Positions 13,360 to 44,967 of a DNA stretch of 64,000 nt are shown here, piece by piece (within the stretch, counting starts at the first letter, position 1; every line of letters begins with the position of its first letter). The position numbers were made by a program, and so were the translations under genes. This DNA comes from Microgenomates group bacterium (GTDB lineage Bacteria > Patescibacteriota > Microgenomatia > UBA12405). The stretch covers positions 821,443-885,442 of the forward strand of contig JBAQNJ010000001.1 in the NCBI GenBank assembly GCA_049303675.1. The letters are read 5' to 3'. Under the pieces are notes generated by a model. It saw only the letters and a list, made by a program, of their open reading frames with translations, did no database searches and was not told the DNA's origin.

Positions 13360-13432
13360 TGCCGAAAGTTGGACTCGAACCAACATCCCAGGTTTTTCAG
13401 ACCAGTGCCGTGACCATCTTGGCTATTTCGGC
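13360..13432 (-). tRNA. tRNA-Phe (anticodon GAA), copy 1
   Basis: rc: GCCGAAATAGCCAAGATGGTCACGGCACTGGT-CTGAAAA-ACCTG GGAT GTTGGTTCGAGTCCAACTTTCGGCA; anticodon stem has one U.U mismatch; 73/73 identical to the copy at 39464..39536. Confidence 0.65.
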
Positions 13433-30139: not shown

Positions 30140-31930
30140 ATGTCACAAAATGACGCCTTACAACACAATGACGACAATCTCTACAAAATCCGCCATAGCG
30201 CCGAGCATATCCTGACGGAGGCCATGCAGCGAGTTTTTGGCGCCGACAAGTTTTTTATGGCCATGGGGCCAGCCACCGATGATGGTTTTTATTTTGATTT
30301 CGAACCACTTGGCGATTTCAAAATTTCTGAAACAGATTTTCCGGCAATTGAAGCCGAAATGACTAAAATAGTCAAAGAAAATTTACCTATAGTTAGGTCC
30401 GAAATTAGTCTAGAAGAAGCCAAAAAAATGTTTGTCAATAATCCTTATAAAATGGAATGGCTCGAGTCAATTAAGGACCGCGATGAAGTTATTTCGATTT
30501 ATAAAACCGGCGACGAATTTGTCGATCTTTGTGCCGGCCCTCATGTCAATTACACCGCCAAAGTCAAGGCCTTTAAACTACTCTCTATCGCCGGTGCCTA
30601 TTGGCACGGCGATGAAAAAAACAAAATGCTCACCCGTATCTACGGCACCGCCTTTGAGAATAAAGAAGAGTTGGCCAAATTCGTCACCAATCTCGAAGAA
30701 GCCCACAAAAGAGACCATCGAAAATTGGGTAAAGAACTAGGTCTATTCACTTTTTCTGAATTAATTGGTAGTGGATTGCCACTTTATACTCCCAAAGGGG
30801 CTCTGATCAGGCTAGCTGTCAATAATTACGTCGAAGAAACCCAAAAAAAACAAGGTTATACTCAAGTTTGGACACCTCAAATAGCCAAGGCTAAGCTGTT
30901 TCAAGTCTCTGGTCACTATGACAAATACAAAGACAGCATGTTTAGAGTGGTCAGCAACTATTCCGATGAAGAATTTTTTCTCAAGCCAATGAATTGTCCC
31001 CAGCATACCCAAATATATGCCTCAGAGGCCCATAGCTATCGTGATTTACCACTTCGCTTTGCCGATTTTGCCATGCTATATCGAGATGAAAAACCTGGGG
31101 AATTAAATGGCCTAGCTCGAGTCCGTGCCTTTTCCCAAGACGACTGTCATATTTTTTGTCGTGAAGATCAAGTCGACGCCGAAATTGATATGGCTCTACA
31201 AATGACCAAAGAAATTATGGGGACTTTTGGACTCAAGTATAAATATCGCCTGTCCACCCGCGATCCCTCTCATCCTGAAAAATATTTAGGTGACCCAAAA
31301 ATTTGGGATAAGGTAGAAAAATGGGCTGTCGATATTATGAAGCGCAATCATATTGAATATTTTGATGGCCCAGGTGAAGCCGCTTTCTATGCTCCCAAAA
31401 TGGACTTAATCGCCACCGATGCTCTTGGTCGAGAATGGCAATTATCTACAGTTCAAATCGATTATGTCATGCCCGAAAGATTTGGTCTAGAATACACCGC
31501 TGCCGATGGCACCAAGCAGCGTCCTATCATGCTCCACCGAGCTATCGTTGGCTCACCCGAGCGTTTTATGATGATCATGATTGAACATTTCGCTGGTGCA
31601 TTTCCAGTTTGGCTATCCCCAGTCCAAGCTAAAATTATTCCTATTACCGATGCCCAGCATGGGTATGCACGGACTGTCGAAGCAGAATTAAGAGCAAGCA
31701 ACATTAGGGTAGAAATTGACGATCGCTCCGAAAAAATGCAGGCCAAAATTCGCGATGCCCAGATGCAAAAGATTCCCTTTATGCTGGTTATTGGTGGCCG
31801 CGAAGCCGACTCTGACTCTGTGGCTGTCCGTCAACGCGACGGCCAAGACCTCGGCGCTGTCAAAGTTGATCAATTTTTATCCCAAATTAAGGATTTAATT
31901 AACACAAAGTCTCTTAATCTGATAAAATAA
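30140..31930 (+). CDS. thrS: threonyl-tRNA synthetase
   Basis: class II aaRS core, 'HRKLGKELGLF', C-terminal anticodon-binding domain; 596 aa (no N-terminal TGS domain). Confidence 0.9.
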   Translation: MSQNDALQHNDDNLYKIRHSAEHILTEAMQRVFGADKFFMAMGPATDDGFYFDFEPLGDFKISETDFPAIEAEMTKIVKENLPIVRSEISLEEAKKMFVNNPYKMEWLESIKDRDEVISIYKTGDEFVDLCAGPHVNYTAKVKAFKLLSIAGAYWHGDEKNKMLTRIYGTAFENKEELAKFVTNLEEAHKRDHRKLGKELGLFTFSELIGSGLPLYTPKGALIRLAVNNYVEETQKKQGYTQVWTPQIAKAKLFQVSGHYDKYKDSMFRVVSNYSDEEFFLKPMNCPQHTQIYASEAHSYRDLPLRFADFAMLYRDEKPGELNGLARVRAFSQDDCHIFCREDQVDAEIDMALQMTKEIMGTFGLKYKYRLSTRDPSHPEKYLGDPKIWDKVEKWAVDIMKRNHIEYFDGPGEAAFYAPKMDLIATDALGREWQLSTVQIDYVMPERFGLEYTAADGTKQRPIMLHRAIVGSPERFMMIMIEHFAGAFPVWLSPVQAKIIPITDAQHGYARTVEAELRASNIRVEIDDRSEKMQAKIRDAQMQKIPFMLVIGGREADSDSVAVRQRDGQDLGAVKVDQFLSQIKDLINTKSLNLIK

Positions 31931-31937
31931 CTAATTC

Positions 31938-32483
31938 ATGGCTACTTATCGAAATCAAAATCAAAACAAAAAGTTTTATCGTATTAATCAGTATATTCAG
32001 GCAACTGAAGTCCGCCTGATCGACGAAGAAGCCAAACAAATTGGCGTACTGTCTATTTCCGAGGCTCGCAAAATGGCTGCCGAAACCGGCCTCGACCTAG
32101 TCGAAGTCGCCCCCATGGCCAAACCACCAGTTGTCAAACTCATTGAGTTCACCAAGTTCAAATATCAAGAAGCCAAAAAGATGAAAGCCGAGAAAAAGGG
32201 GATTCAAGGTGGCCAAATGAAAGAGATTCAAATGACACCTTTTATTAGTGACAACGATTACGATACCGGAATCAAAAAATCCATCAAATTTTTGACTACT
32301 GGAAATAAAGTCCGTCTTAATATAAAATTCCAAGGTCGCCAGATTCAACGAAAAGAGTTTGGCTATGATTTAATCGAAAGATACAAAAAAGATCTTCTCG
32401 ATTATGGTTCACCCGAAGGGGAAGCCAAACTAATGGGCAAGAGGTTGCAATTCATGCTAACCCCCACCAAAAAAAAACAATAA
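31938..32483 (+). CDS. infC: translation initiation factor IF-3
   Basis: 'INQYIQATEVRLIDEEAKQIGVLSISEARKMAAETGLDLVEVAP...PVVKLIEF'. Confidence 0.9.
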   Translation: MATYRNQNQNKKFYRINQYIQATEVRLIDEEAKQIGVLSISEARKMAAETGLDLVEVAPMAKPPVVKLIEFTKFKYQEAKKMKAEKKGIQGGQMKEIQMTPFISDNDYDTGIKKSIKFLTTGNKVRLNIKFQGRQIQRKEFGYDLIERYKKDLLDYGSPEGEAKLMGKRLQFMLTPTKKKQ

Positions 32484-32487
32484 ATAT

Positions 32488-32697
32488 ATGAAAAAACCAA
32501 GCAAACGCTATCGTATCCGCAAATCAGTTAGTAGCCGATTTGAAGTCACCAAAAATGGTGTAGTTTTACGCGAATCTTCATTCCATCGTCATCTTCGTCG
32601 CACCAAGAGCAAAAAACAACTCCGTCGCTTAAAGGGCAAGCACCATGTCTTGGGTCGTTTTGCATTAAAAGTTAAGCGAATGCTAGGATTTAGATAG
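32488..32697 (+). CDS. rpmI: 50S ribosomal protein L35
   Basis: 69-aa basic protein in the conserved infC-rpmI-rplT position. Confidence 0.8.
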   Translation: MKKPSKRYRIRKSVSSRFEVTKNGVVLRESSFHRHLRRTKSKKQLRRLKGKHHVLGRFALKVKRMLGFR

Positions 32698-32737
32698 CTT
32701 TACAAACTTTAAACTTTATAACTTTATAAACTAATAT

Positions 32738-33079
32738 ATGCGCGTTAAAACTGGAATAGTCCGTCACCAACATCACAAAAAAGTCCTAGAGGCAGCCAAG
32801 GGTTTTTGGATGACTCGTCACAAGAGATACAAGGTAGCTCACCAAGCAGTCATGCATTCTGGCAATTACGCCTACGAAGGTCGACGTATTCGCCGTCGTG
32901 ATATGCGTCGATTGTGGATTGTCCGTCTCAACGCTGCTCTCAAGCCATTTGAAGTCCGCTACTCCACTTTCATTAATTTAATGAAAACCAAAAAAGTTGA
33001 TCTCAATCGTAAAATGCTCACCGAGATTGCTATCCAATATCCTGATACTTTCAAATCCATCGTCGCCTTTATAAAATAG
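32738..33079 (+). CDS. rplT: 50S ribosomal protein L20
   Basis: 'MRVKTGIVRHQHHKKVLEAAKGFW...RRDMRRLWIVRLNAA' L20 signature. Confidence 0.9.
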   Translation: MRVKTGIVRHQHHKKVLEAAKGFWMTRHKRYKVAHQAVMHSGNYAYEGRRIRRRDMRRLWIVRLNAALKPFEVRYSTFINLMKTKKVDLNRKMLTEIAIQYPDTFKSIVAFIK

Positions 33080-33104
33080 GGTACGGGGATTCACTTAAAT
33101 TTTT

Positions 33105-33139
33105 AAGCTCTCCGATAGCTATCGGAGAGCTTTTGTTTT
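33105..33139 (+). terminator. rho-independent terminator (perfect 12-bp-stem hairpin AAGCTCTCCGATAGCTATCGGAGAGCTT + TTTGTTTT) abutting the pheS-fragment ATG
   Basis: read directly; no SD sequence between the hairpin and the ATG at 33140. Confidence 0.65.
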
Positions 33140-33640
33140 ATGCAACTAGAAGAAATAAAAAAAGAAATAGAAAAATGTTCAACGGCAGCTGATTTGGAAA
33201 ATATTCGTATAAAATATCTAGGTAGAACTGGTCTAATTAATGCCGAATTTTCCAAAATAAAGTCTGCCCCAGACCATAAACTTTTTGGTATAGAGTTAAA
33301 TGAATTAAAAAAATCAGTTGAAGAATTAATCGAAACAAAAAATTCTTCCCTTGGTCACGAAATAAAATCAATCAAAAAAAATATATCAGTAGCTTCAATA
33401 AAAAAAATCGGACATTTACATCCTTTAACAATAACTGAGCGTCAACTCAACGAAGTTTTCCGCAAACTAGGCTTCTCCATCTACAATTCTCCTGAGATTG
33501 TCACTGATGAGTACAATTTTGAGCGCCTGAATGTCCCCAAAAATTACCCTGCCCGTGACATGAAAGAGATTGGACCCATTACAATTATCAAAGTTGAAAT
33601 AGCAGATAATATCTCGACAATATTTTACGAATTAAAATAA
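33140..33640 (+). pseudogene. pheS: phenylalanyl-tRNA synthetase alpha subunit, N-terminal 141 codons only (homology ends after 'NYPARDM' at ~33563; tail is unrelated)
   Basis: 'LENIRIKYLGRTGLIN' and 'GHLHPLTITERQLNEVFRKLGFSIYNSPEIVTDEYNFERLNVPKNYPARDM' align to PheS residues ~25-155; the catalytic core and pheT are absent from the window. Confidence 0.7.
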
Positions 33641-33701
33641 TTTACATAATATAAGTTATTGACCGATTTCATCATTGATAGAGTATAATTCCACCAGCTA
33701 A

Positions 33702-35183
33702 ATGGCAAAAGTTACTTTTACTATCTCAGGGTTATCGAAAAAATTCATATTCAAGACAATCGGCAAAGACATCTCAGCATTACAAAAAAAACTTTTTCGC
33801 TTGCAAATTGCCACCAAACTTCCTCCAGAATTTTTACCTCTCCATGCGTGTTTATTAAAAAAAAATAATATTGGTATTCTCTTGACCGGTCCGAGCCAAT
33901 CTGGCAAATCAACACTAGCTACTTTACTTAACCAAATAGGTTTTGAGCCTCTAGCAAATGATTTTGTTGCAGTTACCTCTGAAAAAAATAAATTGATGGC
34001 CAGTGATATTAATTACCAATCAAATAGTAACCACTACTTACCAACACCCATTGATTATATATTCGCTTTAAACTCAAAAGATGAACTTGATATCAGCAGA
34101 ATGTCCAAAAAGGTATTTAGACATTTTTATATAGAACAACTACAACCACTATCACACAAGTCAGTTTTGCCCTTAACAAAAAGACCACTGTTTAAACAAT
34201 TGTTTCTGAAACATATTAGCCTAGGAAACAGAAAAAACCCAGTGAAATGGCTCAAAAGCATAAAGTATATTATGTCTTTGTCAATACCAAAAAAAGTTGG
34301 AATTTTTGGGTTAGGTACAATTGGCCAAGATATATCAAGCCTACTTCTTACCCAATCAAATTTAAGTGAATTACATCTATTTACCCGCGATCAAATTAAA
34401 CTAGCTTCTTTCGTTTTAGATTTAAAAAGTGCCAACCAAAAACTAGTAATTATTGCTCATACAAAAGTCGAGGACTTTTTTAACAGTAGTGATATCGTAA
34501 TTCTGTGTTTTAGAGAAGACGTATCCGTAACCTCTAGTCCCCAAGTTGAAGAAAGAGTTAAGAAACTTCTTCCCCACTCAAAGATTATTTGGGATCTCAG
34601 TCGTGTTACTCGTAAGGTTGGATTTACGGGCAGTATTTTAATGGTTACTAACCCAGTCGACTTGCTCTCTTCGCTACTCTACAACTTTTCATGGTTAAAT
34701 GATCAGAACCAGTCAGATGACCAAGGGCTGTTTTCAAACCAAATACTTGGAGTGGGAATTGGCTTAGACTATAAACGTTTAAAGACCTTCAAGCAGACGG
34801 AGAAATTAGAATTAGTTGGTCCACACGGTAGCGATTTACAACTTGCTCAGGTCAAAAACGGAATATTAACAGAGGCAAATTCAAAATACCTAGCCGGCGT
34901 CATAAGTTATTCCGATAAAATTCGACTTGGTTGTGCCCGAACTAGGGTGGGTCCAGTATATGAAATAAACAAAATTCTCACTACACTCTTGATAGGGAAA
35001 GGAATCATCAGAGCCTCTGGTTTATACCACTCAGGCATATTTTTAGGTAATATCTGGAGAATCAAGAATCACATTCCCAGCACTAACTATATTTTGGATA
35101 AAAAATTACAAAAAAAACTGGATCAGATATCCGCTAAACAAAACGATTTGTTGCAAACAACTAAAATCGATTTGTTTAGGTAG
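33702..35183 (+). CDS. two-domain fusion protein: N-terminal HprK-like P-loop kinase domain plus C-terminal L-lactate/malate dehydrogenase-like domain
   Basis: N: 'IGILLTGPSQSGKSTLATLLNQIGFEPLANDFVAV' (HprK C-domain-like Walker A). C: 'KKVGIFGLGTIGQD' (GxGxxG), 'LMVTNPVDLL' (NPVD), 'ILGVGIGLDYKRL' (LDxxR), 'VGPHGSDL' (catalytic His). Confidence 0.6.
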   Translation: MAKVTFTISGLSKKFIFKTIGKDISALQKKLFRLQIATKLPPEFLPLHACLLKKNNIGILLTGPSQSGKSTLATLLNQIGFEPLANDFVAVTSEKNKLMASDINYQSNSNHYLPTPIDYIFALNSKDELDISRMSKKVFRHFYIEQLQPLSHKSVLPLTKRPLFKQLFLKHISLGNRKNPVKWLKSIKYIMSLSIPKKVGIFGLGTIGQDISSLLLTQSNLSELHLFTRDQIKLASFVLDLKSANQKLVIIAHTKVEDFFNSSDIVILCFREDVSVTSSPQVEERVKKLLPHSKIIWDLSRVTRKVGFTGSILMVTNPVDLLSSLLYNFSWLNDQNQSDDQGLFSNQILGVGIGLDYKRLKTFKQTEKLELVGPHGSDLQLAQVKNGILTEANSKYLAGVISYSDKIRLGCARTRVGPVYEINKILTTLLIGKGIIRASGLYHSGIFLGNIWRIKNHIPSTNYILDKKLQKKLDQISAKQNDLLQTTKIDLFR

Positions 35184-35250
35184 TTCTTCTGCTTGACACC
35201 TAAGTATCGAGTATGTATCATTACCAGCAAATAAGAAAATTACCAAGTTT

Positions 35251-36333
35251 ATGTCACATAATTGCCGAGAATATAAAATTAGACCAGCCGAACCAAGTGA
35301 TGCACCCGAACTAGTTGAACTAGTTAAAAATGGTATGCCAGGCTATCCATTTGAATCTGTATATCGTGAACAATCAGTCAAAGAATCCATTGAAAGTCCA
35401 ACCTCATATAGAGTAATTGCTGAAAGAAAGGGCAAAGTTGTCGGAACCGCAGTCCTAGGTGAAACTGGTGAGTACCAACAAGAAATCAAAAGGGTTGTAG
35501 TCTCACCAACTGAGCGAGGCAATGGTCTCGCTAGCACCATGACCAAACACCTAGCCGATAAGGCCACTGCAGCAGGTATCGTCCCATGGCTAGATGCTAG
35601 AACCAGAGAACCCGCCATGCAGCAAGCTGGTCTAAGCGCTGGTATGCATGCCATGTCTCTCGAAAAAGGCAAACATCTAGTTTATAACCATTTAGATAGT
35701 CAAGGACAAGAAGTTGGCCCAGCTCGGGAAACTATGGTAAACGAAACATTACTAACAAAAGACCCTCAAGAATTGACTGGTGGACTAAAAAGATGGGGTC
35801 ATAATTTATTAAAAACTCTAGCGGCAAACATGGAAGATTCATTTTCTCCTCCACCCAAAGATGTAAGTATTGTAAATAAAGAAATACCTAGTGCTAGAGA
35901 AGTTAAGGAAAAAATTGAGAGAGGGATTAGAAACCTGTCACCAAGCACCGTTCAAAGGACTTCAAACCCCGACATCGTTATCCTCTCAGAACACCAAACA
36001 TCTATGGTAGTAGTCACGCCGGATGCATCAGCATTTGTTTTGACCAAACCAAACGTCGGACTAAAGAAGATGGTCGAAACAGGTGAAAAAATTGGACTAC
36101 AAACCATCACCGCATATATTGATATTGGTGATATTAAATCACAACGACATTTACGAGACGCAGATATGTCTCCAACTATGGTTCGCTTAAATCAAAACAA
36201 AAGGTGTGAACCTATAACCTATCAAGTAGGTTGGAGAAAAACGGCCAATAGCTTTAACCAGTGTGTCGACGAAATCAAAGTTGCCCCTGAAGCAGAACGT
36301 CAAATTCGAGACATCATCAAAAGAATTCCGTAA
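35251..36333 (+). CDS. GNAT-family N-acetyltransferase domain protein with ~200-aa C-terminal extension of unknown function
   Basis: 'IRPAEPSDAPELVELVK...VVGTAVLGE...VVVSPTERGNGLASTMTKHLADKA' GNAT motifs A/B. Confidence 0.6.
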   Translation: MSHNCREYKIRPAEPSDAPELVELVKNGMPGYPFESVYREQSVKESIESPTSYRVIAERKGKVVGTAVLGETGEYQQEIKRVVVSPTERGNGLASTMTKHLADKATAAGIVPWLDARTREPAMQQAGLSAGMHAMSLEKGKHLVYNHLDSQGQEVGPARETMVNETLLTKDPQELTGGLKRWGHNLLKTLAANMEDSFSPPPKDVSIVNKEIPSAREVKEKIERGIRNLSPSTVQRTSNPDIVILSEHQTSMVVVTPDASAFVLTKPNVGLKKMVETGEKIGLQTITAYIDIGDIKSQRHLRDADMSPTMVRLNQNKRCEPITYQVGWRKTANSFNQCVDEIKVAPEAERQIRDIIKRIP

Positions 36334-36348
36334 GTATATAATTAGACA

Positions 36349-37425
36349 ATGAAAAACGAATTGTTGAAAATATTAACCAAGCTTGTCAGCTTCCAAACAA
36401 CCAACGACCAGCCAGAAAATATTACCAAATGCTTTGACTATATAGATAGCCAGTTATCTTTTTATCCCTTCGCCAAAAAAATATATATCCAAAATGGGGT
36501 AGAATCACGTGTCTGGAGTACAAAAAAATCCCTAAACACGGAATATATTCTAAATGCTCATATTGATGTAGTACCTGCAGATCAAAAACTTTTTAAGCTC
36601 CACCTTCAACAAGACAAACTAAATGGCAGGGGAGTGTCCGACATGAAATTCTCGATTGCCTCCTACATTTGTATTTTAAAAGATATCTATACTGCTACAA
36701 AGAAGCTACCGTCCATTGCCCTTATGTTGACTTCAGACGAAGAGCTTGGTGGCTATAACGGTGTCAACTACTTGGTTAATCAAATTGGATATAGTGCCTC
36801 TGTCGTTATGGTACCCGATGGTGGAGAGAATAACAAAATAGTTGAAAACGCCAAGGGTGTGTTGCATTTACAAATTAGTTCCACTGGTATTCCCGCCCAC
36901 GCTGCCAGACTTTGGGAAGGGGAATCTGCAATTGAAAAATTAGCTCAGGCTATTGTCAATTTACGAAAAATATATCCTTATCCGTCAAAATCTGTTTGGA
37001 AAAACACCCTAAATATAGGTAAAATACAAGGTGGCACTCAAACTAATCAAGTTCCGGATTCAGCTTTTATGTATCTCGACATCCGCTATCTCCCCACTAC
37101 CAACACTGATATTGTAGTAAAAAAAATAGCCAATGCCTGCCCCAATTGTCAAGTTAAAACAATTATTAATGGTGAGGCTTTTCATATAGACAAAAACAAT
37201 AAATATATTAGCAGGTGGGCCAAGTTAATTTCAAATGGCAAACAGGTTTATATTAATGAAAACATAGCTTCAGATGGTCGATACTTCTCTGCCAAAAACA
37301 TTCCGGTAATTGTTTCCAAACCAATTGGTGGACTAATTCACCACCATGATGAATGGACTAGCCTATCTTCCCTCATGGAATTTACTAACAATCTGAAAAA
37401 ATTTTTGACAAATGACACTGACTAG
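36349..37425 (+). CDS. M20-family metallopeptidase/deacylase (ArgE/DapE/CPG2-like)
   Basis: 'LNAHIDVVP', 'GRGVSDMKFSIA', 'LMLTSDEELGG' metal-binding motifs. Confidence 0.7.
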   Translation: MKNELLKILTKLVSFQTTNDQPENITKCFDYIDSQLSFYPFAKKIYIQNGVESRVWSTKKSLNTEYILNAHIDVVPADQKLFKLHLQQDKLNGRGVSDMKFSIASYICILKDIYTATKKLPSIALMLTSDEELGGYNGVNYLVNQIGYSASVVMVPDGGENNKIVENAKGVLHLQISSTGIPAHAARLWEGESAIEKLAQAIVNLRKIYPYPSKSVWKNTLNIGKIQGGTQTNQVPDSAFMYLDIRYLPTTNTDIVVKKIANACPNCQVKTIINGEAFHIDKNNKYISRWAKLISNGKQVYINENIASDGRYFSAKNIPVIVSKPIGGLIHHHDEWTSLSSLMEFTNNLKKFLTNDTD

Positions 37426-37744
37426 ACTAAAAGGAATTGGTATTGGCAACTCAAAAGGGAGTGGCCGAGTTTTAATCATTAGTTCACATCAGGATTTTGC
37501 CAAAGTCAAGGGTAATGAGGTCCTCGTGGTCCAAAATGCCACACCCGATTTCATTGTAATTCTCAAAAAAGTAAAATGTCTTATCACCGATCAAGGCGGA
37601 GCCACTTCTCATATCGCCATTGTTTGTCGTGAGTTGTCCATACATGCCATTATTGCCACCGGCCTAGCCACAGCCAAATTCCATAATAACGATGAAATTT
37701 ACTTTGATACAACAAAAGGAACTGTCACCAGATATGATCCATAA
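37412..37744 (+). CDS. stand-alone PEP-utilizing-enzyme mobile (phosphohistidine swivel) domain protein
   Basis: 'LITDQGGATSHIAIVCRELSIHAIIATG' matches the swivel His motif (compare 'GGQTSHAAIVSRELGVPCVVG' in ppsA of this window); 110 aa. Confidence 0.65.
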   Translation: MTLTRLKGIGIGNSKGSGRVLIISSHQDFAKVKGNEVLVVQNATPDFIVILKKVKCLITDQGGATSHIAIVCRELSIHAIIATGLATAKFHNNDEIYFDTTKGTVTRYDP

Positions 37745-38483
37745 ATCACTTCAACTACTCCATAAAACATTAATTAGTTATCCGTCAATCGTCACTAATT
37801 ACTTTGACAAGTGGGGGATCAGGCCAGAGAACTTGATCACCCGTCTTTCCGACACCAATTTTCATGGAGGCATTGAATCAAAGATTATTTCAATCCACAA
37901 CCTCCCCTCAAAAAAATATTCCACTACATTAGACATAGGTCCAGAAACGGGGATAGAAATATTTCTACTTTCAGAGATATCTGCCCATCTTCAAGTAGCC
38001 GACCCAGATGAAGACAATTTAATTCTATTAAAATCTATTACCGACAAGGCCCTTCCAATTTATTCAAAAAATATCAAATATATCCCCTGTGGACTAGATA
38101 ACAGCCATACCTATCTAGCAGAAAATTCATACTATACCCAACTAAAAAAAATACAAAAAAATTCAATTCCTACGTTTTACCATCTCACTTCCACCTCAGA
38201 ACTGGCCAATCTAGATTCAAAATTTGACCTAATCTATATCCACAAAATTATATCCACTATTAGTCGTTCACAAAAAACCCCAGCCAACTCAATATTTCAT
38301 AAATCACTTGACACGCTTTTTACTAAACTAAATAAAAAAGGCATTATTTCTTGGACTGAGCCAAAATTCTTCTGGGATCAACAAAAATTGACTATACCTG
38401 ATAAATATAAGACAAAAGTTATAGACTATCAACTCTCCAACACAGCTGACAATTATCGACAACTATTAATAACTCATGATTAA
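37734..38483 (+). CDS. hypothetical protein, possible class I SAM-methyltransferase-like
   Basis: start trimmed to Met15 to reduce overlap; 'TLDIGPETGIEIFLLSE' loosely resembles MTase motif I; weak. Confidence 0.3.
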   Translation: MIHKSLQLLHKTLISYPSIVTNYFDKWGIRPENLITRLSDTNFHGGIESKIISIHNLPSKKYSTTLDIGPETGIEIFLLSEISAHLQVADPDEDNLILLKSITDKALPIYSKNIKYIPCGLDNSHTYLAENSYYTQLKKIQKNSIPTFYHLTSTSELANLDSKFDLIYIHKIISTISRSQKTPANSIFHKSLDTLFTKLNKKGIISWTEPKFFWDQQKLTIPDKYKTKVIDYQLSNTADNYRQLLITHD

Positions 38484-39444
38484 CCCCCGCTTAAATCCCT
38501 GGAACATTTATGGAAATTTTTCCAATCCAGACCCATCCATTACCGCCAACGTATATGCCAATGGTCATGAATGGTACAACTCTTACATGCCACCTTTTTT
38601 TTTGCTAAAAGACAAGCAACAAATCGCCAACATCAGAAAGAAACTTGATAAAGAATATATACAATATATATCAACAATATTTTCACCAAAAAATAGACTA
38701 AAAACAATCAAATTGCAATATTACCGAATCAAAAAATTTTTTAGCTTATCGAAAAAATTGATTCCAGAATTTGAGAAAATCGACGATCTCCAAAAACTGA
38801 ATCAACTACTTTATAAGTCAATCAATCTGATGCAGACATACCTAAACCCACTAGAGGCCATTGTCACCGGTAAACGTTCTTTATACAACCCGATTCCTCA
38901 TATTTTTAAAAACCAACATACCCAAATTGAATCACTAAAAAAATCACCCTCCTTAGAAACAATTTTTATTCCCATGTCAATAATTTTCACACACCGAAAA
39001 ACATTTTCAATTGAATATAAAAAAGTATTCAAGTATCTTACCTCCACTTTATTTTGTACCTCCAGAGATCTTCAGTTTGCCTTTAAATATGTTGAGAAGA
39101 CCTATCACTATAGTCACTTTATGGAATTATTTGACGCCCAACATGTTGTCAAACAAAATTATCACAAAATATTACACCTATCAGAACTCACACCTACCCA
39201 AGAATTTGTACACCATCTTCAGACAATCAGTGGTATTTTAACATGGTCAAAATATATCCCGATATCATACAAACCACTCCACTTTCGCTATTTTTGTGAA
39301 ATAGAAACATATTCAATTCTCTTAAATACACCCGAGGTAAAAGCATCAGAATTTCTCAAAAAAGAACTGTCGATCAAATCAAACTCAGGCTCAGAAAAGT
39401 TTGCCAAAACTATTTTTGCATTTAAATATTTTAACCATTTCTAA
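38476..39444 (+). CDS. hypothetical protein (322 aa)
   Basis: ORF overlapping the upstream stop; no motif recognised. Confidence 0.35.
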   Translation: MINPRLNPWNIYGNFSNPDPSITANVYANGHEWYNSYMPPFFLLKDKQQIANIRKKLDKEYIQYISTIFSPKNRLKTIKLQYYRIKKFFSLSKKLIPEFEKIDDLQKLNQLLYKSINLMQTYLNPLEAIVTGKRSLYNPIPHIFKNQHTQIESLKKSPSLETIFIPMSIIFTHRKTFSIEYKKVFKYLTSTLFCTSRDLQFAFKYVEKTYHYSHFMELFDAQHVVKQNYHKILHLSELTPTQEFVHHLQTISGILTWSKYIPISYKPLHFRYFCEIETYSILLNTPEVKASEFLKKELSIKSNSGSEKFAKTIFAFKYFNHF

Positions 39445-39463
39445 TGTGATATCATCATGTCAA

Positions 39464-39536
39464 GCCGAAATAGCCAAGATGGTCACGGCACTGGTCTGAA
39501 AAACCTGGGATGTTGGTTCGAGTCCAACTTTCGGCA
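39464..39536 (+). tRNA. tRNA-Phe (anticodon GAA), copy 2 (73/73 identical to 13360..13432)
   Basis: GCCGAAATAGCCAAGATGGTCACGGCACTGGTCTGAAAAACCTGGGATGTTGGTTCGAGTCCAACTTTCGGCA. Confidence 0.65.
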
Positions 39537-39685
39537 CTAGATGTCTGTTCTTTGCGGTACACTCCTTTTTCTTATTTCTATCATCGTTGTCTCTATTTTT
39601 TTTTGATATTCTACCAGTTTATAACTCCCGTCTTTAATCCACGGTAGAAGATTATCTTTTTTTGTTTCATTTTTTGTAGTCATAC

Positions 39686-39712
39686 AACAAAAAACCTCCC
39701 TTTCGGGAGGTT
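39686..39712 (-). terminator. rho-independent terminator for the decarboxylase gene (CCTCCC-TTTC-GGGAGG + T-run on minus strand)
   Basis: read directly. Confidence 0.55.
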
Positions 39713-39834
39713 CCTAATTTAAATCTATAATGAGATTACAAGTTAGGCCCCCCTAAGGAAGGCATAAAAAAGAAGAATTGGACACCCTTCATTACTTGTA
39801 ACACTAATCAATTATATACTAGTAATTGCATCTG

Positions 39835-41415
39835 TCAACCCGTCCGCGCTTCGATGGCATCAAAAATTAGTTTTTCCAAATTATCCACAGCGTCGTCCAA
39901 TATACCGTCAGTTGTCCATGGATTCATAATACAGGCTCTCCATGTCCACAATTTTCTCTCCTTAGTATCTGTTTCATCAAGTAAATCAGTTTCGGAAAAA
40001 TAATAACCACCTGGATTCTGAAAATCATTATCTAAAACATGCCTTGTTTTTGTAATGAAGCAGTGAAATGCTTCACTGTGTCCGTCTAAGTTTAATTTAG
40101 CCAAAACATCATCCCTCAGGGTAAAACATAATAAATTTAGTTCTGGGTCATGAAATGGACGTAAATATGTTGACTCCTTCAGCCTTGCATGAAGATGATT
40201 TATTCTATCAAGTGCCATATCAAAACTAGTTTGGAGTCCTTCCCTTCCCAAAGTATCCATCATCGCTTTGACTACCAATATTCCTCCAGCCCCTCCCGAT
40301 CCTTCAATTCTTTTAGAGCCTAATCCAGCCGTCCCTTCAATTAAAGATTTTGCGATCCTAGGCCTATCTTTTTCAAATTCTTCGGATTTATCAGCCATAT
40401 TTATCCCAATATAATTAGCTTTCACCCCTTTGGCTAATCCTGCATGTTTCCTCGCATCTTTGAAGCAGACGGCCCCACTACTTCCATTATATGGACCATA
40501 CAAGTTTTTGTGGACATCAAATACAACCGCATCATATTCTGGCAAGCCATCAAATTTATCACCAACCCTAGATAGTCTATACGGTGCACCATAGGCAGCA
40601 TCTCCAATCGTAAAGATTTCATTTTCACAAGCAATTCTATTTATCTCAACCCCGTCATCAACCAGCCCAGTTTCCGTTTCTCCCATGATTCCGATAATCG
40701 CCATTACAGGAATTCCCTTTGATTCCGCCTCACGAATTTTGTTTCTAAGATCATCTAGCGACATCTTTAAACCACATGTTTTTAATGTTTGTATTTTTAT
40801 ATTGTGATTTGGTCCACCCAATAAATCCACTGCCTTCGGAATAGAGTAATGGGCCATATCAGTAGTTAGCACCCAAACTTCATCAGGAAATCTTGTTCCA
40901 GCTTGTTCATACTTGGCTTCCATTTCTTTTCGAGCAACTGCAAGAGCAGTGAAATTGGCCATAGTCCCACCAGAACAAAATGTACCACTAGCTTTTTCCT
41001 TATCATAACCAATAATATCTAAGATATGTCCCATCGATTGATGTTCCAAACGTGTTTCTACCATACTCACCTCAGGCGCTACTGTGTTTGAACCTAATTC
41101 TGTCGACAGCAAATTTGCTACCAGTGCCGGAATAGGTACCTCAGTCAACATATGGCCCAAATAATTACTTGTAAACCTCCTAGCTCCTGACATTTGAACA
41201 AAACTATCGTTCATACCAGCCATCAGCTCCAAATTATTTTCCGAACCTTCGGCCAACAACTCTTTCAATAGTTTCTCTGCCAGAAACTCTCTATCCTCCT
41301 GTTGATTAGCAAAAGCCGCCAAAACTCTGCTTACCTCAACCTCCGAGTGATCAGTAGAAGTTGGTCTTTCTTTTATTGCTTTTGTCATAAAAAAAAGCCC
41401 CGCATAGCGGGGCAA
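39835..41415 (-). CDS. PLP-dependent group II decarboxylase (glutamate/tyrosine/aspartate decarboxylase-like)
   Basis: 'FCSGGTMANFTALAVARK', PLP-Lys 'FDVHKNLYG'; 526 aa. Confidence 0.75.
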   Translation of the reverse strand: MPRYAGLFFMTKAIKERPTSTDHSEVEVSRVLAAFANQQEDREFLAEKLLKELLAEGSENNLELMAGMNDSFVQMSGARRFTSNYLGHMLTEVPIPALVANLLSTELGSNTVAPEVSMVETRLEHQSMGHILDIIGYDKEKASGTFCSGGTMANFTALAVARKEMEAKYEQAGTRFPDEVWVLTTDMAHYSIPKAVDLLGGPNHNIKIQTLKTCGLKMSLDDLRNKIREAESKGIPVMAIIGIMGETETGLVDDGVEINRIACENEIFTIGDAAYGAPYRLSRVGDKFDGLPEYDAVVFDVHKNLYGPYNGSSGAVCFKDARKHAGLAKGVKANYIGINMADKSEEFEKDRPRIAKSLIEGTAGLGSKRIEGSGGAGGILVVKAMMDTLGREGLQTSFDMALDRINHLHARLKESTYLRPFHDPELNLLCFTLRDDVLAKLNLDGHSEAFHCFITKTRHVLDNDFQNPGGYYFSETDLLDETDTKERKLWTWRACIMNPWTTDGILDDAVDNLEKLIFDAIEARTG

Positions 41416-41524: not shown

Positions 41525-41869
41525 TTATTTTGATCTCAATAAGTCGGTGAACATCACTTCTCCAAACTTTTTAGCACTGGGATCTCTACTTAGTCCGTCC
41601 TCGACCAAATCCAACATTGCTCCTGCCGCCAATGGTGCTCTGATTACTTCTGTTGTCCTATATAGTCTATTGTGCTCAACCGGCAACCGCTCAATGCCCA
41701 CACTTCTTAATGTCATTTGGGTGTCACTATTCATCTCTCCACCCCTAAATCCATTTGTGGCAATTACTATTTCCCAAGCCAGTTTACGCATGTCTAGATC
41801 AGCAGGATTAGACGTTTTTACTATTTGTACAAATTCTTTTTTTAGTTGATCCATTTCTATCATGGGCAT
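41525..41869 (-). CDS. hypothetical protein (114 aa)
   Basis: ORF only. Confidence 0.3.
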   Translation of the reverse strand: MPMIEMDQLKKEFVQIVKTSNPADLDMRKLAWEIVIATNGFRGGEMNSDTQMTLRSVGIERLPVEHNRLYRTTEVIRAPLAAGAMLDLVEDGLSRDPSAKKFGEVMFTDLLRSK

Positions 41870-42345
41870 ATTTTATCACGACAACACCTACTTTACATTT
41901 TCCCCGATTATTTGTATATTTGACCCAATGACCTCTTTACGTCTTATTTCTATTTATAAACTTATTCACCCGCTAGCCGGAGGAATATTGACGTAAACAG
42001 TCCCCAAGTCAATTTAGCCCCTCCGGCAACGGAGGGGCTTTTTGTATCTTTGTTAATTATTTAAACAAAAAAATATGTCATCACAAATAGACAAGTGGAT
42101 AGAGCAACGTCGGTTAGCTCAAGAATTATCCAAAAAACAACGTCAAAATCTGGCCGATGTTGCAAAAATAGTAACCAGCAACATCCATCTTTTCCAGCCC
42201 AGAAATGTTGAAACAAAAGTTGCTGTCACCAAGTCAGAGTCAACTTCCAAACCCTAGTTTCGTCTCTAGCACTCCAAACAAATGAGTGCTAACAACAATA
42301 TCTAAACAGATACTTCCTATTTTTAGATAATATTTCTATATCAAT

Positions 42346-44967
42346 CTAATTCGAACTAGGTAACACTGTTACAATCGGCAGGGGAGTAATTGTCGGAACA
42401 GGCGTATTTGTCGGTGTTGGGCTAGGTGCCCAATCCCAAGGTTTATTCACCCCAATCTTAATTTCCTTACTGTAACTCGCTCCATCAACATCGCTGACTA
42501 CCGCCTTGAGACTATAAGTGCCATCACTTAGACCAATATCACCCTCAAATGGTCTCTCGGTCCATGACTTTTTTTCGACATCATTTACCAGCAGTTTTAC
42601 TTGAGTTATTTTTTTGAGGGAATTGGTACTTATTTTGACATTAAAAGTCCCTCCCACCGTCGATCTGTCACTCGGGCTATCAAAACTAGCCGAAACAGTG
42701 CCATCGTTGCGACAATAATCGCTTGGCGGGCTGTACATATCTTTATTTGGCTGCTGGGCAATCCAGCCATCTATTCCCTGTTGCCATCGATTGACCCCAT
42801 CTTTAGAAATAGGATCATCTTCTTTGAGCCTAATATATTCTTTCTCATCAAAATTGTTGTTGGCTACATCTTCAGGTGGTGCAATACCTCCGCCAGCTGG
42901 CGGATTACCTTTACAGACTTTTAATTTCAAATGGATTGGATCATTTATATTAGGTTGGGTTCCATCGATAAAATACATCGAAGTTGCAGGAAATCCATCA
43001 TGAGCTGCATATCCGGAAATTTTATCCACTTCAACTTGAACAATCGACGATGGGATAGGGAAATCTTGCTTTGGTCGTGTGGGCAATGTAGCTAGCATGA
43101 TCCTTTTCCAGATCGGACTGGCACCAGACACACCCGAAGCCACTTTGAGCATTGGGGTATTGTTATTATTCCCCACCCAAACTGTCGCTAATAAATTTGG
43201 CGTCCAGCCAATTGTCCAATTATCTTTTTTGTCATTAGTAGTTCCCGTTTTTACTGCCACTTGATAACCAGATACCTGCAATCCGTTGACGGCCCCAAAG
43301 GTAAGTATCCGATTATTGTTATCAGACAAGATATTGGAAATAATAAATGCTTCCTGAGGACTCATCACTTTTTTTCCTTCGACTTGTTTGAATTCTTCCA
43401 AAATACGTCCATCACGACCAACTACTTTGAGTATCCCCACTGGCTCGACCTTTAGCCCACCATTGGCAAAAGCTCCATAGGCCGAGGCCAAATCAATCAT
43501 CTTTACTTCCGCACCTCCCAAAGTGACTGCCAAGCCATATTTTTTCAGATTTTCCGTTGTTGGTTCGAGCGTCGTCATTCCCATGTCGTAGGCTTGCCTC
43601 AACATATTGGACAGTCCGACGTTAGCCAACGTTTTCACTGCTACCGTATTTATTGAATTACCTAGAGCTTGGGCCAAGCTCATCGGACCATTAAACTTAC
43701 CATTATAATTTTGCGGGCTATAATCTTTTTGTCCCACCACTGTCGAAGCAAAAGTCACCGGAGTGTCCATTACCATCGAGGCCGCCGAATAGCCTTTCCT
43801 AATAGCAGTCAAATATGTCACTGGTTTAATCGCCGACCCTGGCTGTCTCAAACCCTGAGTGACTACATTAAATTTGCCGTCTGTTTTGTCGCTAAAATAT
43901 CCCCGCGAACCCACCATTGCCAAGACTTGACCGTTAGTTGGATCCAACACCACTGCCGCACCATTACTAATTCCCAGTTTTTCGGCCTTGTCAATTTCTT
44001 CCGCTACAATTGTTTGCACCTGATTTTGAATTTTTAGATCCAGTGTAGTGGTTACTTTCAGACCACTACCATCGACCACATCTGCCCCATAAGTTCTGGT
44101 CAATAAATCTTTGATCCAAAAGACAAAGTGCTGGGCTTGTATTTGGGTTTTATTATCATGAAACTTGTAACTTTTTACTTCCTCCATTGTCTTCTTTTCT
44201 GTCTCGGCATCAATATAACCATCCTCTTTCATTCTCGCCAAAACATGGCCCGTTCTATCAATATAAAGGGTTGGGGTTGCCGAAAAAGGGGAGTAAGCAT
44301 TTGGACGTTGGGGTAACCCCGCCAATATGGCCGATTCTGTTAGATTCAAGTCTTTGACCTCTTTATTAAAATACTGTTTGGCGGCCGGTCCCACTCCCCA
44401 GTCAGCGCCACCATATGGTGCCTCGTTCAGATACATTAATAATATTTCACTTTTCTTATACTTTGCCTCGATCTGGACAGCCAATATAAATTCCTTGACC
44501 TTTCGGGTAACACTCACATCAGAATTAAGGAGTACATTTTTGACTAATTGTTGAGTTAGAGTTGACCCGCCAGTTAACTTATGAAAATAAAACACATTTT
44601 TGACAATCCGCAGTGGTGCCAGTGGATCAAACCCCTGATGTTTGTAAAAATCTTTGTCCTCAACTGCCACTGTCGCGTTTTTGAGTGCGTCGGGGACATC
44701 CTCCCAGACTACTGGCACCCGTTTAGCATCCTTGTAAACATCGTAGATCAGCTCTCCATTACGATCATATATCTGGGTGGAAAAACCATCACGCCGAACC
44801 ACCTTGTTGGGGGTCGGTAAATCCTTGGAGTACCATACAAAAGAAATTAAAATGAGGGCATAACCGACCAAAAATATCCCCAACAATACGGCAAAAAACC
44901 TGTACCAAAACCATTTTTCTCCCCAACCAATTTTTTTTAGCCAAAAAGCTACTTTACGATTTCTCAT
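42346..44967 (-). CDS. class A penicillin-binding protein (glycosyltransferase GT51 plus transpeptidase) with C-terminal Ig-like, Pro/Thr-rich extension
   Basis: 'GGSTLTQQLVKN' (GT51), 'SGSAIKP' (SxxK), N-terminal TM anchor; 873 aa. Confidence 0.9.
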   Translation of the reverse strand: MRNRKVAFWLKKIGWGEKWFWYRFFAVLLGIFLVGYALILISFVWYSKDLPTPNKVVRRDGFSTQIYDRNGELIYDVYKDAKRVPVVWEDVPDALKNATVAVEDKDFYKHQGFDPLAPLRIVKNVFYFHKLTGGSTLTQQLVKNVLLNSDVSVTRKVKEFILAVQIEAKYKKSEILLMYLNEAPYGGADWGVGPAAKQYFNKEVKDLNLTESAILAGLPQRPNAYSPFSATPTLYIDRTGHVLARMKEDGYIDAETEKKTMEEVKSYKFHDNKTQIQAQHFVFWIKDLLTRTYGADVVDGSGLKVTTTLDLKIQNQVQTIVAEEIDKAEKLGISNGAAVVLDPTNGQVLAMVGSRGYFSDKTDGKFNVVTQGLRQPGSAIKPVTYLTAIRKGYSAASMVMDTPVTFASTVVGQKDYSPQNYNGKFNGPMSLAQALGNSINTVAVKTLANVGLSNMLRQAYDMGMTTLEPTTENLKKYGLAVTLGGAEVKMIDLASAYGAFANGGLKVEPVGILKVVGRDGRILEEFKQVEGKKVMSPQEAFIISNILSDNNNRILTFGAVNGLQVSGYQVAVKTGTTNDKKDNWTIGWTPNLLATVWVGNNNNTPMLKVASGVSGASPIWKRIMLATLPTRPKQDFPIPSSIVQVEVDKISGYAAHDGFPATSMYFIDGTQPNINDPIHLKLKVCKGNPPAGGGIAPPEDVANNNFDEKEYIRLKEDDPISKDGVNRWQQGIDGWIAQQPNKDMYSPPSDYCRNDGTVSASFDSPSDRSTVGGTFNVKISTNSLKKITQVKLLVNDVEKKSWTERPFEGDIGLSDGTYSLKAVVSDVDGASYSKEIKIGVNKPWDWAPSPTPTNTPVPTITPLPIVTVLPSSN

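Follow-up and report, generated by a model that had tools for sequence, protein, structure and literature searches.

Replacement of the pheS 3' part and pheT by a putative amino-acid gene cluster carrying tRNA-Phe in a Shapirobacteria-like bacterium

What becomes of an essential synthetase gene when pheS, at the end of a conserved thrS-infC-rpmI-rplT-pheS operon, breaks off inside its catalytic core and is followed by accessory genes and a gene for the cognate tRNA? Here we report the analysis of such a locus in a stretch of 64 kb (hereafter the window), which belongs to a 998-kb contig of Microgenomates (Shapirobacteria-like) affiliation from a roughly 1-Mb bacterium of the candidate phyla radiation (CPR). 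The original prediction offered two readings, an integrative island at tRNA-Phe and a functional module of a PheS fragment and tRNA-Phe. We consider it probable that, instead, the 3' part of pheS and pheT were lost, that an 8.3-kb non-integrative amino-acid cluster came to stand in their place, that the remaining stub is young, and that PheRS is encoded elsewhere. Coordinates are collected in Table 1.

Table 1. Features of the pheS locus and the second tRNA-Phe site (window coordinates)
Feature	Coordinates	Strand	Description and basis
tRNA-Phe(GAA) copy A	13359..13432	-	In tRNA array
thrS-infC-rpmI-rplT	30140..33079	+	Conserved upstream operon part (ORF list): thrS 30140-31930; infC 31938-32483; rpmI 32488-32697; rplT 32738-33079
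rplT-pheS hairpin	33105..33132	+	Hairpin then T-run, 7 nt before pheS ATG (terminator scan)
pheS'	33140..33640	+	166-aa ORF; residues 1-143 PheS, 144-166 unrelated tail from inserted DNA
Left junction	33569..33576	.	Relatives' pheS homology ends (nucleotide alignment), codon 143-145
Promoter-like TTGACC / TATAAT	33660..33690	+	19-nt spacer, before six-gene operon; putative, read from sequence
o493	33702..35183	+	HprK-like P-loop domain fused to complete LDH/MDH-type 2-hydroxyacid dehydrogenase (Pfam/NCBIfam)
GNAT360	35251..36333	+	GNAT acyltransferase (aa 1-130) plus uncharacterised 230-aa C-terminal part
M20	36349..37425	+	ArgE/DapE-type amidohydrolase
PEP-mobile domain	37412..37744	+	Stand-alone PEP-utilising 'mobile' phosphohistidine domain, 110 aa
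o263	37692..38483	+	No family match
o322	38476..39444	+	Rare uncharacterised family
tRNA-Phe(GAA) copy B	39464..39537	+	ARAGORN; Rfam 65 bits
Hairpin	39690..39715	.	GC-rich, terminator-like, between convergent operon/tRNA and decarboxylase gene
Decarboxylase	39835..41415	-	Group II PLP-dependent amino-acid decarboxylase
o114	41525..41869	-	Small ORF, final block gene
Right junction	41890..41926	.	Homology to relatives' pheT-PBP intergenic region restarts (L009 ~11,528)
PBP	42346..44967	-	Class A penicillin-binding protein, first gene of resumed synteny

The pheS break and the remaining stub

The ORFs of thrS-infC-rpmI-rplT-pheS' and of six co-directional genes (33702-39444) agree with those described before. 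The upstream part of the operon is collinear with seven related loci (L009, L006, L004, L008, L011, L015 and L021), intact pheS is present in 76 relatives, and the order thrS-infC-rpmI-rplT-pheS-pheT-PBP recurs in L094-L097. The part of PheS retained in the window comprises the N-terminal coiled coil and the first part of the catalytic core, ending at 'YPARDM'; it matches Phe_tRNA-synt_N (aa 15-71) and, for tRNA-synt_2d, only the first 57 columns (aa 87-143). Tblastn searches of the whole 64-kb window in all frames, for which 13 related PheS proteins served as queries together with complete PheS and PheT from the closest relative, confined the homology to 33140-33568 and found no further PheS or PheT similarity at E<0.05. 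The predicted truncation, with loss of the catalytic core and pheT, was thus borne out. A frameshift, named at the time as a finding that would overturn it, is dismissed, since no downstream PheS match occurs in any frame; the break itself lies slightly beyond the codon 141 first proposed.

An assembly artefact, whether through chimeric joining at 33.57 kb or through wrong resolution of the 78-nt tRNA-Phe repeat, is very improbable. The right half of the block (tRNA-Phe, decarboxylase, PBP) has its support from MAG assemblies only, the Logan contigs ending 30 nt inside the tRNA repeat. However, the rplT-pheS'-o493 junction is matched at 100% in two independent, conservative single-run Logan assemblies, and the proteins recur in unchanged order in two NCBI MAGs. 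All of these cross the junction unbroken, and the chimera at 33.56 kb, earlier named as a refuting outcome, fails. The assembled orientation is also collinear with relatives on both sides, and wrong resolution of the inverted repeat would turn 26 kb around without bringing pheS back.

The start of the stub retains its native signals. The hairpin between rplT and pheS keeps its position, with compensatory changes, in at least four of the five relatives aligned; the pheS ATG follows the T-run by 7-9 nt in L009, L006 and L019, and lies farther away in L004 and L008, where the hairpin is also present. Four of these five relatives have an intact pheS, and L019 has an early stop. The hairpin before the ATG is, as judged from these alignments, the ancestral arrangement and no sign of decay, and the earlier view that it would leave the stub poorly translated is wrong, as relatives with intact pheS share it. 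Of 43 conserved columns the stub deviates in one, where Tyr stands for the invariant His136, and its divergence from relatives falls inside the range between intact orthologues. With both native hairpin and native start retained, and almost every conserved residue in place, it looks like a young remnant. Its GC3 is 0.27 versus 0.36-0.44 in the upstream genes, a point against our overall account, as the low value could reflect arrival with the block instead of native origin.

The replacement block and related gene sets

The block (~33,570-41,890, 8.3 kb) fills the place of the pheS 3' part and pheT. Four relatives (L009, L008, L011 and L021) are collinear on both of its flanks, and compared with them ~2.7 kb is gone from the window, namely pheS from codon ~144, pheT and ~350 bp beyond. 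Because the relatives' synteny holds on both sides while 2.7 kb of host DNA is missing, the comparison identifies the event as a replacement, not an insertion. The accessory block stands as predicted except for its end, which had been placed at ~39,540; it extends 2.4 kb more, to ~41,890-41,926, and includes the minus-strand PLP decarboxylase gene and the 114-aa ORF, which was not found in relatives.

The last four of the six co-directional genes have overlapping or near-abutting ends. The promoter-like pair in front of them is not in the list of our promoter scan, which accepts spacers of 16-18 nt. The AF2 model of o493 (pLDDT 89.5) matches LDH structures in Foldseek (TM ~0.7 on target), and the NPVD, D..R and GxHG residues are invariant across 13 homologues. 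GNAT360 has no relatives in JGI metagenome contigs. In L092 and L093 the stand-alone PEP-mobile domain is found together with homologues of o263 and of o322; o322 belongs to a family of 21 representatives among 1.84 billion that accompanies this domain and o263. For o263, the NCBI gene call is 249 aa (start 37734), and an 'LDIGPETG' motif suggests a possible SAM-methyltransferase-like fold. The best matches of the decarboxylase, all sub-threshold, are PanP, DABA decarboxylase and tyrosine decarboxylase; that the top one is the aspartate decarboxylase PanP, not an aromatic enzyme, speaks against our account.

The P-loop-LDH fusion, the group II PLP decarboxylase and the M20 amidohydrolase occur together in four other CPR loci (L088, L089, L098 and L099), where the decarboxylases and M20 proteins next to the o493 homologues are 31-36% and 23-35% identical, respectively, to those of the window. 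This gene set usually adjoins synthetase genes, often a second TyrRS. TyrRS, M20 and decarboxylase genes stand in a row in L089, L098 and L099, which each carry two TyrRS genes above the NCBIfam tyrS cut-off, and in one case (L080/L081) a TyrRS-tRNA-Tyr pair lies near an o493 homologue. Across the seven o493-family loci (132 kb), 15 synthetase genes were counted versus roughly 3 expected by our own estimate of ~20 per Mb. The block thus represents one version of a gene set found repeatedly in CPR genomes, there adjoining synthetase genes. GNAT360, o263 and o322 were not found in the other o493 loci, which also counts against the whole account and marks the block as a mosaic rather than one conserved operon.

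In the scenario that we favour, a Shapirobacteria-like CPR bacterium has lost, from its ancestral thrS-infC-rpmI-rplT-pheS-pheT locus, the segment from pheS codon ~144 to ~350 bp past pheT, where the 8.3-kb block now stands. This block combines the set of P-loop-LDH fusion, PLP decarboxylase and M20 with a GNAT, a small putative PEP-type phosphotransfer module (the mobile His domain, o263 and o322) and tRNA-Phe. The cluster may have entered the variable pheT-PBP gap, with a later 2.3-kb deletion of the pheS 3' part and pheT, or a single illegitimate recombination may have replaced both; the locus bears no signature that tells the two routes apart. A GNAT gene is inserted directly 3' of pheT in L096, marking a variable spot.

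The tRNA-Phe gene and the source of PheRS

Copy B of tRNA-Phe begins 19 nt after o322, with no terminator between them and an extended -10-like element, TGATATCAT, read just upstream. Its identity to the array copy, noticed earlier, holds over 78/78 nt (13357-13434), the two copies being inverted relative to each other and set in unrelated flanks. By pure accident, synthetase and tRNA would both be for Phe in about 1 case in 20, which weighs against the account as a whole.

That an island integrated at tRNA-Phe, bringing or regenerating a full tRNA copy, is highly improbable. A full tRNA-Phe does sit inside foreign DNA, the block has a lower GC3 than the flanking core genes, and an integrated element with a serine recombinase adjoins tRNA-Val 8 kb upstream in the same genome. 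Nevertheless, the block contains no integrase or recombinase (Pfam, NCBIfam, PHROGs); the short direct repeats suggested for both junctions were looked for and not found; and the window holds no partial tRNA-Phe copy within 3 mismatches. The tRNA gene is internal, with 5.9 kb of the block to its left and 2.4 kb to its right, no relative has a tRNA-Phe target at this locus, and 2.7 kb of host DNA was removed, which site-specific integration does not do. Two queries with block proteins found no relatives in IMG/VR contigs. The attachment-site island is therefore not supported, and these results show that the block is no integrative element of the tRNA-targeting kind. It resembles known tRNA-gene-targeted islands, such as the pheV/pheU islands of Enterobacteriaceae, in foreign DNA with a tRNA-Phe gene and atypical composition, and differs from them in each of the features of integration just listed.

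Since the stub lacks motifs 2 and 3 and a beta subunit, it cannot charge tRNA, and PheRS must come from another gene. We infer that this gene lies at another chromosomal site or on a replicon that was not binned and, if present, is probably not of the Shapirobacteria type. Among the matches listed by two database searches, none was a PheS N-domain or core of the Shapirobacteria type that belongs to this contig. For the missing core, the best 120 of 444 matches (clusters to 60% identity) included no representative from it, nor did the members checked in 20 multi-member clusters; a divergent xenologue would escape this search. That no second PheRS was found there or in the 64-kb window is a further point against our account. 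It is decidedly unlikely that the chromosome has no PheRS at all, with pheST lost and the gene on an unbinned replicon, or, as the far more radical version, with PheRS or Phe-tRNA-Phe supplied by a host. Besides the search results, the destruction of the native locus in every assembly covering it agrees with such a loss; but the genome search covered, out of 998 kb, the 64-kb window and small flanks, the retention of two tRNA-Phe genes implies that they are charged, and we know of no free-living or symbiotic bacterium without PheRS. Native synthetases are known to be displaced after gain of a xenologue, as by the archaeal-type PheRS of spirochaetes. The present case is similar in that an essential synthetase gene is lost from its conserved ancestral position, which is tolerable only with another copy. 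It differs in that no replacing gene was found among the matches listed or in the window, and in the visible remnant, which is rarely preserved.

It is unlikely that the PheS N-terminal tRNA-binding fragment and tRNA-Phe act with the cluster, either in a pathway that consumes phenylalanine, as its Phe/tRNA-Phe sensor or regulator much like tyrS in tyramine loci, or in aminoacyl-tRNA-dependent chemistry by the GNAT. The tRNA is the cognate one for the stub, conservation of the stub matches that of intact orthologues, its native start signals are retained, the tRNA gene follows o322 closely, homologous clusters adjoin full-length, apparently extra synthetase genes, and GNAT360 has an uncharacterised C-terminal part of 230 aa. 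On the other side, all synthetase genes of judgeable length in the other o493 loci are full-length or nearly so, with no stub. We found no stand-alone truncated PheS-N family, short matches being cut by contig ends or assembly breaks, and the stub has a 23-residue read-through tail and has lost an invariant His. The o322 homologues of L090-L093 have no tRNA nearby, and no Fem, L/F-transferase, CDPS, PEARL or LanB-type family was detected in the block. HisZ, YadB/GluQRS, PoxA, AlaX and YbaK are likewise short proteins homologous to part of a synthetase, but they form conserved families with complete domains, whereas the stub breaks inside the catalytic core, has a read-through end and belongs to no like-sized family that we found.

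Of the predicted module, the strict form is thus not upheld, no known aminoacyl-tRNA-using enzyme family being present; a looser functional link is plausible, as homologous CPR clusters adjoin synthetase genes, once a TyrRS-tRNA-Tyr pair. For tyramine and histamine clusters, association with a synthetase gene has been called 'a general feature', and a regulatory role of TyrS in the lactic-acid-bacteria (LAB) locus was not demonstrated (PMC3315439). Like the LAB loci (tyrS-tdcA-tyrP-nhaC; hdc with hisS), the present one links a PLP decarboxylase cluster to a synthetase gene. Here, however, this gene is a truncated alpha-subunit stub at the native ribosomal-protein operon instead of an extra full-length copy, a tRNA gene is included, and there is no antiporter and no T-box leader (Rfam matched tRNA only); the LAB loci lack the P-loop-LDH fusion, the M20 and the PPDK_N or PEP-mobile partners. 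Within the replacement account, the block may serve amino-acid, probably aromatic amino-acid, salvage or catabolism, and by analogy with the tyrS-tdc and hisS-hdc loci it may be kept near the cognate charging machinery.

Replacement of the pheS 3' part and pheT

In the Shapirobacteria-like relatives compared (L004-L021 and L094-L097), thrS-infC-rpmI-rplT-pheS-pheT is followed by a class A penicillin-binding protein (PBP) gene on the minus strand, and a scan of the genome collection yielded 76 loci with an intact pheS. In the window, the ORF calls placed thrS, infC, rpmI and rplT at the positions originally reported, and the predicted alternative arrangement of the relatives, an uninterrupted rplT-pheS-pheT without the accessory block, was found upon alignment of the locus. 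Synteny with the nearest relative, L009, is lost within pheS and resumes in the pheT-PBP gap (see table), and thus the event is a replacement, in which ~8.3 kb (33,570-41,890) stand for ~2.7 kb. The truncation of pheS was correctly recognized, but its placement at codon 141 was not: in the nucleotide alignment, the homology runs through codon 143 and the break lies at 33,569-33,576, directly after '...YPARDM', where the relatives go on with 'QDTIYI...'. None of the 76 relatives carries block genes within 10 kb of pheS.

Coordinates of features in the window and their counterparts in the nearest relative, L009
Feature	Window position	Strand	Counterpart in L009 or remark
tRNA-Gly(gcc) 3' end, exact 28-nt copy	12568-12595 and 12863-12890		295 bp from full gene, inside tRNA array
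tRNA-Phe, copy A	13357-13434		in tRNA array
AT-rich repeats	19815-19849, 47020-47070, 48308-48358, 52063-52113	both
Upstream synteny, through pheS codon 143	20112-24859 and 30133-33568		273-8870
tRNA-Val(gac)	25321-25395
4.7-kb element	25396-30130		between tRNA-Val(gac) and thrS
Split large serine recombinase	26686-27063 and 25376-26677	minus	PHROG integrase
Trypsin-like protease	28344-29060		in the 4.7-kb element
Operon mosaic	30140-33079
pheS stub (166-aa ORF)	33140-33640	plus	PheS similarity at 33140-33568
pheS 3' part, pheT and 350 bp beyond	absent		8871 to about 11527
P-loop-LDH fusion (o493)	33702-35183	plus	first of six plus-strand genes, followed by tRNA, hairpin and two further genes
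tRNA-Phe, copy B	39464-39537		inside block
Group II PLP decarboxylase	39835-41415	minus	after hairpin
114-aa ORF (o114)	41525-41869
Resumed synteny, from pheT-PBP gap onwards	41926-49686		11528-19294
39-nt conserved segment	58159-58197, 59075-59113, 60865-60903, 61538-61576		5' ends of minus-strand ORFs

It is directly observed that the pheS 3' part and pheT are lost and that the block stands in their place, and two routes could have led to this state: the cluster may have entered the pheT-PBP gap before a 2.3-kb deletion, or a single illegitimate replacement may have taken place. In L096, a 141-aa GNAT gene (3330-3755) lies directly after pheT, and therefore this gap is variable in the lineage. 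The operon itself has a history of recombination. ThrS is 78-82% identical to its counterparts in L011, L015 and L021 and ~60% to those in L009 and L006, whereas for InfC, RpmI and RplT the higher identities, 84-94%, are with L009, L006 and L019, and the lower ones, 64-82%, with the L011/L015/L021 group; these opposing identities imply that a recombination event had its breakpoint close to the border of thrS and infC.

Two trivial causes of the apparent truncation had been named in the original prediction, a contig chimeric at 33.56 kb and a simple frameshift in pheS. Chimerism at 33.57 kb is very unlikely, because two Logan contigs and a second MAG agree across this junction. The contigs, from single-run assemblies of SRR28062879 and SRR28062869, are 100% identical to window 30905-35868 and 31578-33939, and both span the path from rplT through the stub to the P-loop-LDH fusion gene. 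The 166-aa stub ORF is encoded on both of them and also on JBAQFH010000001.1 (998,417 bp, 'Microgenomates group bacterium', GCA_049287145.1). Each protein looked up, from ThrS to the block protein o322, has two NCBI accessions, and along the window one series descends (MFZ2153160 to 2153150) while the other ascends (MFZ3031219 to 3031229), which therefore reveals a second MAG with the same gene order. As for the frameshift, tblastn with 13 related PheS proteins and the full L009 PheS (330 aa) and PheT (581 aa) detected similarity in the 64-kb window only in the stub, with nothing else better than E=0.05, and close PheS and PheT queries at E up to 50 gave no match past 33568 in any frame. Neither was there any PheT similarity within the window that could supply a beta subunit beside the stub.

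Both Logan contigs carrying o322 end at 39491, 30 nt into the tRNA-Phe gene, which is the expected behaviour of a k=31 graph at a repeat; therefore the path from the tRNA to the decarboxylase is based on the MAG assemblies and synteny. The identical tRNA-Phe genes (13357-13434 and 39462-39539) are inverted repeats 26 kb apart, and recombination between them would invert a segment with the ribosomal-protein operon and the six-gene cluster. Since short-read assemblies break at this repeat, both orientations of the segment could coexist.

Properties of the pheS stub

Profile searches agreed with the original assignment of the ORF after rplT to the N-terminal part of PheS. They matched the PheS N-terminal domain and, from the class II core (tRNA-synt_2d, 246 columns), no more than an initial stretch of 57 (columns 10-66), the complete core with motifs 1-3 being absent; the score of the ORF against TIGR00468 is 57.6 bits, at a cut-off of 237. 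Judged from its sequence, the stub cannot be a synthetase, because it is without motifs 2 and 3 and without a beta subunit. We read it as a young remnant of pheS, with co-option possible. As in a remnant, partial homology at the ancestral syntenic position is followed by unrelated sequence and a stop. The homologous part has no internal stop and departs from 80 full-length relatives at one of 43 well-conserved columns, where His136, the invariant histidine of HPARD (80/80), is replaced by Tyr. Its identity to relatives, 54-71%, is not below the expectation from the flanking genes; the intact genes of L009 and L006 are themselves only 65% identical over the same stretch, and excess divergence as a sign of decay was not seen against intact orthologues. 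The GC3 of the stub (0.27, vs 0.36-0.44 for thrS to rplT and 0.30-0.36 for the block) is compatible with AT drift as well as with arrival alongside the block.

The stub had been thought to be poorly translated, as a terminator hairpin abuts its ATG. The hairpin and T-run, however, occur at the same place in five relatives, with compensatory stem changes and with the ATG 7-9 nt after the T-run in L009, L006 and L019, as in the window; pheS is intact in four of these five and has an early stop in L019. The hairpin is native architecture, and therefore gives no indication of poor translation. A search against Rfam at E up to 0.1 for a regulatory RNA ahead of the stub returned the tRNA as the sole match.

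Several assemblies contain 187-aa 'PheS' ORFs (L019 9476-10456; P0038, P0042, P0049, P0057, P0058 and P0107) that begin at the Met of HPARDM, the residue at which the homology in the window ends; in L019, the cause is a stop within the N-terminal domain, after codon 65. It seems that the A-rich linker of the PheS N-domain is prone to breaks, either real or from sequencing.

Block genes and the second tRNA-Phe

Six co-directional genes and a tRNA were correctly predicted, although the block does not end at the tRNA after ~6 kb but runs on to ~41,890. In the first gene product, o493, an HprK-like P-loop domain is joined to a complete LDH/MDH fold whose catalytic residues are conserved: NPVD, Asp-x-x-Arg and the catalytic His are invariant in 13 homologues, in line with membership of the LDH/MDH superfamily, and the AF2 model (pLDDT 89.5) matches LDH in Foldseek with E as low as 1e-17 and a TM on target of ~0.7. 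It is followed by genes for a GNAT protein (GNAT360) with a C-terminal part of no assigned family, an ArgE/DapE-type M20 hydrolase, a free-standing PEP-utilising phosphohistidine domain, and the proteins o263 and o322. Protein o322 belongs to a rare family, with 21 representatives among 1.84 billion, whose members in metagenome contigs accompany the same PEP-mobile domain and o263 (in L092 with the order conserved) and, in L093, M20 genes. In Pfam and NCBIfam, GNAT360 matches only ordinary N-acetyltransferase models; it had no relatives in JGI metagenomes, and its single-sequence AF2 model (pLDDT 41) is unusable. The decarboxylase matches PanP (154 bits, cut-off 606) and MfnA (78 bits) only below threshold. 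Pfam and NCBIfam detected in the block neither aminoacyl-tRNA-using families (Fem/L-F-transferase, CDPS, PEARL, LanB) nor a transporter or precursor-amine antiporter; an EamA protein occurs only in L080 and L099, two loci with o493 homologues. The block looks like two functional pieces plus the decarboxylase, all for small amino-acid-like substrates.

The second tRNA-Phe gene is real, as originally claimed, and is a 78/78 inverted copy of the first. An integrative island that used tRNA-Phe as its attachment site had been put forward to explain it, and several observations speak against this reading. No integrase, recombinase or transposase was detected in 33.57-41.89 kb by Pfam, NCBIfam, PADLOC or PHROGs, and the direct repeats expected at the block boundaries were not found with seeds down to 9 nt. 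The 22-nt 3' end of tRNA-Phe, searched at up to three mismatches, occurs in the window only in the two full copies, with no partial one. Copy B is internal to the block and not at an island/host boundary, and no tRNA-Phe is present at this locus in 35 relatives. A segmental duplication was rejected as well, because in a sensitive blastn of the flanks the two copies cease to be identical 2-3 nt beyond either end of the gene. PADLOC found no defence system. As to a phage or mobile origin, the block proteins compared with PHROGs (o263, o322, a 48-aa ORF and o114) had no match, and IMG/VR scans with o322 and the decarboxylase were likewise negative.

A genuine integrated element of 4.7 kb is located 8 kb upstream of the block, behind tRNA-Val(gac), which in relatives stands just before thrS. 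It encodes a trypsin-like protease and a large serine recombinase, the latter split into two ORFs; no repeat of the 3' end of tRNA-Val was detected for it.

Synthetase genes in CPR loci and the source of PheRS

Homologues of o493 in other CPR genomes are 35-56% identical, and at four of the seven loci inspected they adjoin homologues of the window decarboxylase (31-36%) and M20 protein (23-35%), often also with an HD protein and a PPDK_N protein. All seven loci have synthetase genes within 10 kb: TyrRS directly followed by tRNA-Tyr in L080/L081, with prephenate dehydratase; GluRS and AspRS in L082; TyrRS in L083; ArgRS in L088; two TyrRS, HisRS and a short ThrRS in L089, with a Trp repressor; two TyrRS and a class II Asp/Asn/Lys-type enzyme in L098; and two TyrRS and a short ThrRS in L099. 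The seven class Ib genes tested (L083, L089, L098, L099) all passed the NCBIfam tyrS cut-off, and the N-terminally short ThrRS proteins have 416-421 aa. In total, 15 synthetase genes were found in 132 kb, vs ~3 expected at ~20 per Mb by our estimate. A conserved order, TyrRS - M20 - group II PLP decarboxylase - HD - PPDK_N, is divergent from the P-loop-LDH fusion gene; TyrRS is at most one gene away from the decarboxylase, adjacent in L089 and with M20 between in L098 and L099. This CPR neighbourhood of a P-loop-LDH fusion, a PLP decarboxylase, M20 and a PPDK-like or PEP-mobile module appears to be undescribed. In the window, a decarboxylase likewise stands near a synthetase gene, the distance being 6.2 kb to the pheS stub and 0.3 kb to tRNA-Phe.

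The closest parallel known is found in lactic acid bacteria, where the linkage of tyrS to tyrosine decarboxylase and of hisS to histidine decarboxylase is 'a general feature' whose purpose is still unsettled (PMC3315439). Given such linkage elsewhere, it may be more than chance that the stub and the extra tRNA beside the cluster are both of the Phe type. The proposal that the stub, tRNA-Phe and the cluster form a functional module is unproven, and these loci provide a broader analogue of it. The echo of the lactic acid bacteria in the CPR neighbourhood suggests a general coupling of amino acid consumption with tRNA charging. In L081, a Paceibacterota contig (2383-6720), the tRNA-Tyr lies 7 nt after TyrRS, and just upstream there are another tRNA-Tyr, which differs in sequence, and a serine recombinase; this may be a mobile cassette of a synthetase and its cognate tRNA.

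No synthetase-like ORF was found in the rest of the 64-kb window. A search with the stub down to 40% identity gave no second PheS N-domain from JBAQFH010000001.1. For the missing PheS core, none of the cluster representatives among the best 120 of 444 matches, down to 60% identity, came from this contig, which is weaker evidence as the contig field covers representatives only; 20 multi-member PheS-core clusters examined member by member also had none. Thus a vertically inherited second pheS appears unlikely, and the sensible expectation is that PheRS is a divergent xenologue or an off-chromosome copy. We regard it as highly improbable that this ~1-Mb near-complete CPR genome has lost its only PheRS while keeping two tRNA-Phe genes, with Phe-tRNA-Phe formation dependent on an unbinned replicon or, at the extreme, on a host cell, and with the stub beside the extra tRNA-Phe possibly involved; such an organism would be the first bacterium known without a PheRS. 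If, as we expect, there is another PheRS, the locus offers a rare view of an essential synthetase gene shortly after it became redundant and was overwritten, while its stub is still intact, which is useful for dating and understanding gene displacement in streamlined symbiont genomes. The locus combines already known kinds of arrangement, synthetase gene displacement and decarboxylase-synthetase linkage. Our literature search found no paper mentioning the accessions or discussing PheRS in CPR.

Several further features of the window and its relatives were recorded. The 28-nt copy of the tRNA-Gly(gcc) 3' end resembles an att-type scar, such as a former integration or excision would leave. ARAGORN called a tRNA with a CTA anticodon ('Pyl') in L005 (2218-2292) and L029 (1887-1962), at the array position occupied by tRNA-Arg(tct) in other relatives. 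The AT-rich repeats are of the type AATTCGTAATTCGTAATT. The 39-nt segment is repeated at the starts of consecutive ORFs of ~160-220 aa, an indication of tandemly arranged paralogues with a common N-terminus.
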